Virus record (IMG/VR): IMGVR_UViG_2778261541_000004
Span: 1-12,569 of that record
Source: a virus
Taxonomy: Duplodnaviria; Heunggongvirae; Uroviricota; Caudoviricetes
Length of the DNA stretch: 12,569 nt
Reading direction: 5' to 3' (one strand)
Part shown: positions 707-1,521 of the stretch, piece after piece
Layout of the letters: every line of letters begins with the position of its first letter
Position numbering within the stretch: the first letter of the stretch is position 1
Notes under the pieces: model-generated
Databases searched by the model: none
Told to the model about the DNA's origin: nothing
What the model saw: the letters and a program-made list of their open reading frames with translations, nothing else
Position numbers and translations under genes: made by a program

Positions 707-1521
707 GTATGGAGCTGATGGTTAAAGCGATGAAAATTCGAGTGGGTAATCCATTGCGAAAACTGGTTCTGATCAAGCTGGCTGATAATGCCAGCGATCA
801 GGGTGAGTGCTGGCCCAGCTACCAGCATATTGCTGACCAGTGCGAGATTAGCAAACGTTCTGTGATGAATCATATTGCGGCCCTTTGTGAGTCCGGGCTG
901 GTAAAAAAAGTCACCCGGAAAGGTGAAAAAGGTAACTCAAGTAATATCTATCTCCTTCATCTGGATGGTGCAGGAGATTCACTAGGGGGTAGTGCAAATA
1001 ATTCACTATCTGGTGCAGCAAATTCACCAGGTAGTGCAGGAGTTGCACCAGGGGGTAGTGCAGGAGATTCACCCAGAACCAGTCACTCTTTTGAACCAGT
1101 CAAAGAACCAGTCAATGAACCAATAGCTGTTGGTGCATCAGTTGATGAGTCCGTGCGAGTTCGTTCAAACCGGCCGGAATACTCTCCGGAGTTTGAGCAG
1201 GCATGGCTGGCATATCCCAAACGTGCTGGTGGTAATTCAAAATCTGCAGCCTTCAAAGCCTGGAAAGCCCGTTTGAATGAGGGGGTAAACCCCGAAACCA
1301 TGCTGGAAGGTGTGAAACGCTACGCGGGCTGGGTATCTGCGATGGGTAACAGCGGCACACAATTTGTGAAACAGGCTGTCACGTTCTTTGGTCCGGATCG
1401 TCATTTCGAAGAATCCTGGGAAGTTCCTGCGGTATCTGCAGCCAGACGTGAGGACCCGTACTTCAAAGCCAGTTACGACAACGTGGACTACAGCCAGATC
1501 CCGGCAGGATTCAGGGGGTGA
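703..1521 (+). CDS. replication-initiator-like protein: N-terminal winged HTH, Gly/Ser/Ala-rich linker, conserved C-terminal domain
   Basis: 272 aa. The N-terminus (LVLIKLADNASDQGECWPSYQHIADQCEISKRSVMNHIAALCESGLV) resembles HTH domains of phage and plasmid replication initiators. A low-complexity linker is followed by a C-terminal segment (EFEQAWLAYPKRAGG..AAFKAWKAR) that I recall from phage replication proteins. This is family-level recognition from memory, not a search. Confidence 0.7.
   Translation: MSMELMVKAMKIRVGNPLRKLVLIKLADNASDQGECWPSYQHIADQCEISKRSVMNHIAALCESGLVKKVTRKGEKGNSSNIYLLHLDGAGDSLGGSANNSLSGAANSPGSAGVAPGGSAGDSPRTSHSFEPVKEPVNEPIAVGASVDESVRVRSNRPEYSPEFEQAWLAYPKRAGGNSKSAAFKAWKARLNEGVNPETMLEGVKRYAGWVSAMGNSGTQFVKQAVTFFGPDRHFEESWEVPAVSAARREDPYFKASYDNVDYSQIPAGFRG
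961..1122 (+). repeat. iteron-like direct repeats inside the replication gene (candidate origin)
   Basis: Seen in sequence: GCAGGAGATTCAC at about 968-980 and 1061-1073; AGGGGGTAGTGCA at about 983-995 and 1050-1062; GAACCAGTCAA twice at about 1093-1114. They lie in the DNA encoding the inter-domain linker, which is where lambda places ori within gene O. Confidence 0.35.

Follow-up and report, generated by a model that had tools for sequence, protein, structure and literature searches.

A probable replication origin of phased palindromes and a conserved core inside the initiator gene of a lambdoid prophage

Introduction

The question raised by the locus described here is whether the short repeats that crowd the middle of a phage replication gene belong to an origin of replication embedded in that gene, or are what a repetitive protein linker leaves behind in the DNA that encodes it. 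A sequence-only reading of the locus had reported 11-13-nt direct repeats at positions 955-1125, in the DNA that encodes the linker of a helix-turn-helix (HTH) replication protein, and had proposed that they are origin iterons placed like those of lambda gene O, with a by-product of the linker peptide as the alternative. Lambda, P22 and phage L are established cases of iterons within a gene (PMC8022706; PMC7466680), and the minimal unwinding unit of lambda consists of two iterons adjoining an AT-rich tract (PMC7466680).

The window, by which is meant the whole stretch of 12,569 nucleotides (12.5 kb) that was analysed, belongs to a lambdoid prophage of the E. coli type, as read from its open reading frames and profile matches. 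Early-right genes are followed by an N6/N4 DNA methylase gene (3133-4185), the holin, lysozyme and Rz genes (4252-5428), the small and large terminase genes (6266-8085) and NleG-type effector genes. The large terminase (6760-8085) ends about one third of the way into its nuclease domain (positions 1-98 of the 294 of the GpA_nuclease profile), likeness to prophages of complete E. coli genomes mostly stops at 8048, and beyond the terminase lie two NleG effector genes (8587-9066 on the plus strand and 10333-10983 on the minus strand) and an open reading frame of the IpaB/EvcA family at 11166-11756. The junction with the effector region occurs in none of the complete E. coli genomes of the collection. 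The prophage appears to be a decayed remnant with type III effector cargo, and with the terminase cut at 8085 and effector genes after it, the copy in the window may have lost the ability to fire.

Several other features of the window were recorded. A full-length match to the C4 antisense RNA, an immunity RNA of the P1/P7 type (Rfam RF01695; 102-189, plus strand; 80.1 bits against a gathering score of 45), overlaps the start of the open reading frame at 106-477, which carries a Phage_ASH domain. Downstream of the replication gene, a PerC-like open reading frame of 63 amino acids (1518-1709, plus strand) overlaps, in another frame, the start of a DUF968/HNH open reading frame of 349 amino acids (1537-2586, plus strand), within which the PHROG matches change family at about aa 37-41; this switch could reflect a frameshift, a fusion or an overprinted start. 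A Q-like antiterminator open reading frame of 147 amino acids (2558-3001, plus strand) is matched only over positions 1-128 of the 253 of its profile (PHROG 127) and may be truncated. A tandem repeat of 27 nt (2.1 copies, 83% matches) lies near the end of the window at 12464-12521.

Results

The initiator gene and its protein

The initiator gene occupies positions 703-1521 of the plus strand and encodes 272 amino acids, with an N-terminal winged helix, a disordered linker and a helical C-terminal domain. The Pfam family HTH_36 (PF13730) matches aa 17-67 (E=1.8e-11; 44.1 bits against a curated cut-off of 25), a match to DnaD_N is weak and below threshold, and PHROG 270, whose name “replication initiation protein” is an annotation and not a tested function, matches over the full length (aa 3-271, E=1.7e-88). 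The protein is 100% identical to orf39 of Shigella phage SfV, a “replication protein”, and the DNA of the gene is 98-100% identical in mEp460, cdtI, SfV, Stx2c phages and Stx2a_WGPS2.

In the AlphaFold2 model, aa 1-88 (encoded at 703-966, plus strand) form a confident winged helix, with a pLDDT of 67-91 over aa 1-90, a predicted recognition helix at aa 51-63 and a beta-hairpin wing at aa 67-85, and aa 91-156 are disordered. A Foldseek search with the N-domain returned solely winged-helix proteins, including DnaD-N and the N-domains of plasmid Rep proteins, and a sequence search of the PDB found no sequence relative of the protein. Since the Foldseek matches are generic and the PDB holds no sequence relative, the fold supports the description “DNA-binding winged helix” and nothing more specific. 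The C-terminal domain (encoded at 1180-1518, plus strand) is defined by matches of aa 145-272 to the PHROG annotations “DnaD-like helicase loader” and “primosomal protein”; it is presumed to recruit the host replication machinery, and in relatives it adjoins helicase, DnaC-like or primase genes.

A search for the initiator family returned 5,428 protein clusters at E<=1e-5, and the members of the family include the SfV, ST64B, mEp460 and cdtI phages together with Stx2 phages of the “Eru5/6” type. The gene is matched in 2,717 of 5,426 complete E. coli genomes, and over at least 80% of its length in 897. Full-length matches in a plasmid search fell mostly in non-mobilizable circles of 33-45 kb, which are probably phage genomes, and in a few much larger records; the search returned no small replicon of the kind that would prove sufficiency.

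The iteron array

A repeat search found the repeats clustered in a 39-nt family at 968, 992 and 1034 and an 11-nt family at 1075, 1092 and 1104, and TRF reported periods of 21, 24 and 12 nt in the same region. Repeats are thus present where they had first been reported, but a unit of 11-13 nt describes them poorly, and they are better treated as two classes, 15-bp palindromes and copies of the 10-mer GAACCAGTCA. The first class consists of five imperfect palindromes of the form GTGCA-N5-T(T/G)CAC, which lie on the plus strand within 968-1072 at spacings of 24, 21, 21 and 24 bp: iteron 1, GTGCAGGAGATTCAC, at 968-982; iteron 2, GTGCAAATAATTCAC, at 992-1006; iteron 3, GTGCAGCAAATTCAC, at 1013-1027; iteron 4, GTGCAGGAGTTGCAC, at 1034-1048; and iteron 5, again GTGCAGGAGATTCAC, at 1058-1072, ending 2 bp upstream of the conserved block described below. 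All were located as matches to the pattern GTGCA-N5-TKCAC, which iteron 4, whose arms are perfectly palindromic, satisfies on both strands. The 12.5-kb window holds five matches to this pattern, all of them in 968-1072, where 0.09 would be expected by chance, and none of 200 shuffles reaches five. No other repeat cluster was found in the early region of the window, and 955-1125 contains no match resembling a DnaA box or the IHF consensus.

The five iterons correspond to nucleotides 266-370 of the gene, between the two protein domains, and all of them lie in one reading frame. The linker encoded by this region is rich in glycine, serine and alanine, and because aa 91-156 of the product of 703-1521 are modelled as disordered, the repeats do lie in linker-coding DNA of an HTH replication protein, as had been stated from the sequence. 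Alleles of the gene differ by whole units: counts of 1, 2, 5, 8 and 9 or 10 units occur, and the proteins have lengths of 242, 250, 272, 294 and 302 amino acids. Among the natural alleles, P0028 (250 amino acids, on 64 contigs) has two iteron units only, P0042 (242 amino acids) has a single unit, and P0018 (278 amino acids) has an extra 12-nt GAACCAGTCAAA unit. The existence of alleles with so few as one or two units counts somewhat against the origin reading. A per-position conservation profile of the units is given little weight, being partly circular in that the half-sites served to find the units.

Conservation of the arrangement in relatives

If the palindromes belong to an origin, then they should occur in functional homologues of the initiator, and their absence there had been named in advance as grounds for refutation; SfV, ST64B, mEp460, cdtI and the Stx2 phages all carry them. 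Each of 12 homologues from annotated phages, collected by protein search, has 3-8 dyad-symmetric repeats directly after the N-domain, with a sequence particular to its lineage: GTGCA..T(T/G)CAC in SfV, ST64B, AsXd-1 and cdtI, GTGAC..GTCAC in Vibrio D67, GGGCA..TGCCC in Stx2a_F403 and TGCCA..TGGCA in a Klebsiella phage. Across 20 N-domain lineages from viral contigs the linker holds 4.0 copies on average, compared with 1.45 and 1.6 in DNA of equal length from the N-domain and the C-domain and 1.55 in shuffles. The same arrangement is found in 37 of 40 genome loci with a readable gene, in hosts that include Pseudomonas, Haemophilus, Shewanella, Xenorhabdus, Photorhabdus, Photobacterium, Providencia, Proteus and Erwinia.

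Related lineages that reach from E. coli to prophages of Pseudomonas and Haemophilus, about 60 of them, each have a palindrome of their own, present in 2-6 copies whose distances from the block are the same throughout. The iteron starts are quantised relative to the block at -17, -41, -62/63, -83/86, -104/107 and -128, almost all of the spacings are 21-24 bp (57 lineages or loci), and the last iteron lies exactly 2 bp upstream of the block in every relative. The second and third samples, which widened the survey, were fetched with the block as bait and are used for the iterons only, so they provide no measure of the conservation of the block itself.

Coupling of the half-sites to the recognition helix

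In a Mantel test on 24 lineages, which are related sequences, the distance between half-sites correlates with the distance over aa 44-62, the recognition-helix region (r=0.43, p=0.0002); there is no correlation with aa 1-43 (r=-0.05, p=0.65) and a weak one with the wing (r=0.17). The central spacer of the palindromes, which is not contacted, correlates with every protein region (r=0.31-0.47), which is what shared ancestry alone predicts, and it therefore serves as an internal control. Positions 52, 53 and 55 of the protein separate the half-site classes best.

The C-terminal domain is exchanged as a module among phages. One C-domain type is joined to three different N-domain/iteron types, and in Stx phages the domain also stands behind an unrelated N-domain with repeats of its own, near DnaC-like and helicase genes. 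Because the C-domain occurs with differing N-domains, each of which has its own iterons, the iterons travel with the N-domain. The “replication protein O” of the Stx2d phage Stx2_112808 (L214) joins the C-domain type of the window protein to an unrelated N-domain with no Pfam hit, and the middle of its gene (about 1320-1450) holds repeats of the TTTCCC/GGGAAA type followed by an A/T-rich tract; this protein may be a third type of initiator with an intragenic origin.

Replication origin or regulatory sites

The lambdoid prophage probably has its replication origin at 968-1109, within the gene for its own initiator. The proposal that the repeats are iterons of such an origin is supported by their shifts of reading frame, described below, by their excess regularity, by a geometry that holds over about 60 lineages and by a motif that changes with the recognition helix. 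The anatomy of 3-6 phased sites beside an invariant core is that of an origin, and it speaks against the unlikely alternative that the palindromes are sites at which the winged-helix protein acts in regulation and not in initiation, with the origin elsewhere. Possible roles of this kind would be autorepression, a roadblock to transcription of the early operon, copy control or the exclusion of related phages, and such roles would suit the facts that dyad sites recognised by winged helices are also typical of operators, that plasmid iterons serve both initiation and control, and that no strongly AT-rich tract adjoins the array. The sites lie within a coding region, however, and not at a promoter, with no sigma-70-like promoter found in 600-1700; the C-terminal domain falls in replication-protein families and has helicase, DnaC-like or primase genes as neighbours in relatives; and the early region of the window has no second repeat cluster.

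The conserved block

Directly beyond the iterons lies a core block, AGAACCAGTCACTCTTTTGAACCAGTCAAAGAACC (1075-1109, plus strand), which stands out by codon identity, by low polymorphism and by the exact preservation of its first 28 nt in distant prophages. At shared residues, homologues that were found by protein similarity, and are therefore unbiased as to DNA, use the same codon in a fraction of 0.95 of cases (196/206) over aa 124-137; the N-domain gives 0.40 and the C-domain 0.33. Such changes as occur within the codons of aa 124-137 are not preferentially synonymous. Within the lineage of the window, 59 alleles have variable sites at 3/39 positions of the block, 5/50 of the iteron half-sites, 9/31 between iterons, 27/68 of the linker after the block and 95/342 of the C-domain, so that few parts of the gene vary as little as the block; the loci for these counts were found through the N-domain, which is itself biased low. 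The first 28 nt are exact in prophages of Pseudomonas, Haemophilus, Shewanella, Xenorhabdus and others, whose hosts range from 40% to 63% GC, and the peptide RTSHSFEPVxEP that the block encodes is conserved too.

The block is built from repeats of the second class. The 10-mer GAACCAGTCA occurs on the plus strand in three exact copies, at 1076-1085, 1093-1102 and 1105-1114, the first in a different frame from the second and third, and a degenerate fourth copy, GAACCAATAG, can be read from the sequence at 1117-1126. The same ten nucleotides encode RTSH at 1076 but EPVK at 1093, and because they are read in two frames inside the window they are not a peptide repeat; in mEp013 a corresponding repeat, AACCAGTCA, lies in another, third frame.

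The block is a local maximum of AT content, at about 60% AT, and the AT fraction is 0.58-0.64 over the roughly 50 bp past the last iteron. A classical AT-rich unwinding tract is not evident beside the iterons, since the region after them is about 60% AT compared with 70-85% in lambda. The block is proposed as a candidate unwinding or loading element.

A conserved segment in such a position might have been preserved for reasons other than origin function, as a junction at which N- and C-domains are swapped by recombination, as a host-protein docking motif formed by RTSHSFEPVxEP, or as a signal at the level of the mRNA. The N- and C-domains do recombine independently, with the junction at or after the block, and the peptide is conserved along with the DNA, yet these explanations are quite unlikely to suffice. 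Constraint on a peptide leaves synonymous sites free, as it does in equally conserved motifs of the N-domain (0.40 against 0.95), and it does not account for a 10-mer kept in two frames, and in a third in mEp013, for the identity of the first 28 nt in hosts of very different GC content, or for a last iteron that is always exactly 2 bp upstream. An mRNA signal receives no support from Rfam, which matches no family at the block or anywhere within 955-1125, the C4 RNA being its sole match in the window. A role in recombination is compatible with origin function, but alone it does not explain the conservation of the block.

DNA-level selection or a by-product of the linker

If the iterons were a consequence of the linker peptide, then DNA that encodes the same peptide with other codons should reproduce them. 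Among 100,000 synonymous recodings of the linker with the codon usage of the window, none has five motifs and the maximum is three; when any motif of the form 5-N5-5 is allowed, the maximum is three copies in 500 recodings, against the five observed.

The reading frame provides a second criterion. The five iterons of the window share one frame, and the evidence for iterons out of frame therefore comes from relatives. A step of 22 or 23 bp separates neighbouring copies in 8 of the 20 lineages and 14 of the 37 loci, and such copies consequently lie in different frames and encode different peptides (e.g. GVVQEIHQG and GSAGDSP); in mEp013 and in Vibrio D96a the frame of one copy is shifted, with a different peptide as the result. 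A repeat motif is thus kept in different frames twice over, by the iterons in relatives and by GAACCAGTCA within the window.

It is hardly credible that a low-complexity linker prone to slippage produced the repeats neutrally, with no role for them at the DNA level, even though the segment is rich in glycine, serine and alanine and predicted to be disordered, allele copy number changes by whole units and all five iterons of the window share a frame, because the motif persists in many lineages in shifted frames that encode unrelated peptides, conservation extends to the dyad symmetry, to the phasing at 21-24 bp and to the fixed distance from the block, but not to the peptide, no synonymous recoding reproduces the regularity, and the half-sites co-vary with the recognition helix only. 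The by-product reading is rejected on these grounds and on the codon identity of the block, the comparative evidence deciding for a function of the DNA. What the sequences show is a set of real, non-random repeats under selection as DNA, whose geometry is fixed and which co-vary with the recognition helix. On the other side, recent duplication of DNA could also be the source of the low synonymous divergence among the copies of a single lineage. The Gly/Ser/Ala-rich peptide is best explained as, for the most part, an incidental product of the iteron DNA, accepted in a linker that is disordered and tolerant.

Discussion

A model of initiation

We infer binding of the protein to the iterons, unwinding at the block and origin function from the sequence comparisons. 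The N-terminal winged helix would bind the five dyad-symmetric iterons, probably as a dimer at each site, and with the iterons about two helical turns (21-24 bp) apart the bound protein would form a nucleoprotein array abutting the 35-bp core at 1075-1109. The duplex would open at this core, which is family-wide, and the C-terminal domain would bring in the host helicase or primosome. A striking additional feature is the core itself, a nearly invariant 35 bp that is, on the sequences compared, common to Gammaproteobacterial prophages.

A bolder reading, which is put forward tentatively and is somewhat doubtful, is that the block of about 35 bp, AGAACCAGTCACTCTTTTGAACCAGTCAAnGAACC, is a universal and portable origin core that is recognised as DNA, in duplex or single-stranded form, and onto which lineage-specific pairs of iteron and recognition helix are plugged. 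Its recogniser would then be either a factor conserved across the Gammaproteobacteria or an invariant face of the initiator. If this holds, then the family would offer a natural and readable code of protein-DNA specificity together with a fixed junction for swapping replication specificities, and it would be a clear case in which a cis-acting DNA element dictates the sequence of a protein linker.

Significance

The location of the putative origin provides a concrete target of 150 bp for the study or the blocking of induction-driven amplification of toxin phages, and the origin reading would explain both the odd low-complexity linker and the polymorphism of its length. The iterons and recognition helices of the lineages, about 60 pairs that occur in nature, constitute a data set on how winged-helix initiators change specificity, and the alleles P0028, P0042 and P0018 would be useful natural deletion and insertion variants for the study of origin function. 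Annotation pipelines could flag the origin from sequence alone. The initiator family is very common, and the lambda arrangement would here be found in a different, widespread and unstudied family of proteins.

Comparison with known systems

No description of this origin, and no binding or replication experiment on the family, was found in the open-access literature text. Older work reportedly compared lambdoid origins, and a review of phage replication modules is said to have treated modules that consist of an initiator only; the repeats may already appear in either source.

The RepA_N plasmid initiators of Gram-positive bacteria have iterons placed centrally inside the rep gene and a host-specific C-domain. 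They resemble the window protein in a winged-helix N-domain of a fold related to DnaD-N (RepA of pSK41/pTZ2162; PDB 4pql, 4pt7, 5kbj). Their structures are weak and generic Foldseek matches (E 0.02-0.06), the hosts and the type of element differ, and the window protein has no Pfam hit to a RepA_N domain and no PDB sequence match.

The window gene belongs to the non-lambdoid “Eru” modules of Stx phages, about whose replication nothing is known according to the authors who classified them, and for which Stx2a_WGPS2 is the reference of the “Eru6” type and Stx2a_F403 that of “Eru5” (PMC8951638). In DNA, the gene of the window and that of Stx2a_WGPS2 are 98.7% identical (98.2% in protein for Stx2a_1447), the protein of Stx2a_F403 is 48% identical over aa 1-186, and these modules likewise have an open reading frame with an Ash domain upstream. 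The classification rests on proteins only; no mention of iterons or of an origin of replication was found in it (PMC8951638), and the Eru papers do not discuss origins.

The closest parallel in arrangement is provided by the lambda-type origins. The proteins lambda O, P22 gene 18 and those of phage L and of the Stx phages 933W and P27 similarly combine an N-terminal DNA-binding domain with a C-terminal recruitment domain, and their origins likewise consist of several dyad-symmetric iterons in the middle of the gene, spaced 20-24 bp apart in mixed frames and followed by an opening region. The number of iterons varies between relatives and their sequence differs between specificity types; the unit-number polymorphism of the window family parallels the variation in iteron number among lambda-type Stx phages. 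The proposed parallel with lambda O is borne out by position and spacing, the annotated iterons of lambda lying at gene nt 349-433 with spacings of 20, 24 and 23, in frames 0, 2, 2 and 1, and those of the window at gene nt 266-370 with spacings of 24, 21, 21 and 24.

The systems also differ. The window protein has an HTH_36 N-domain and no Phage_rep_O (PF04492), whereas lambda O hits Phage_rep_O at E=5.7e-36; the iterons of the window family are 15 bp long (5-N5-5), compared with 18-19 bp in the lambda type; the segment beside the iterons is about 60% AT and almost invariant over 35 bp from E. coli to Pseudomonas prophages, compared with an AT fraction of 0.70-0.85 in lambda; and in the lineage of the window, unlike lambda, no gene for a P-like helicase loader follows. 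The best reading of the sequence evidence is that the lambda ori/O arrangement is carried here by a different family of N-domains, with lineage-specific iterons and a shared core.
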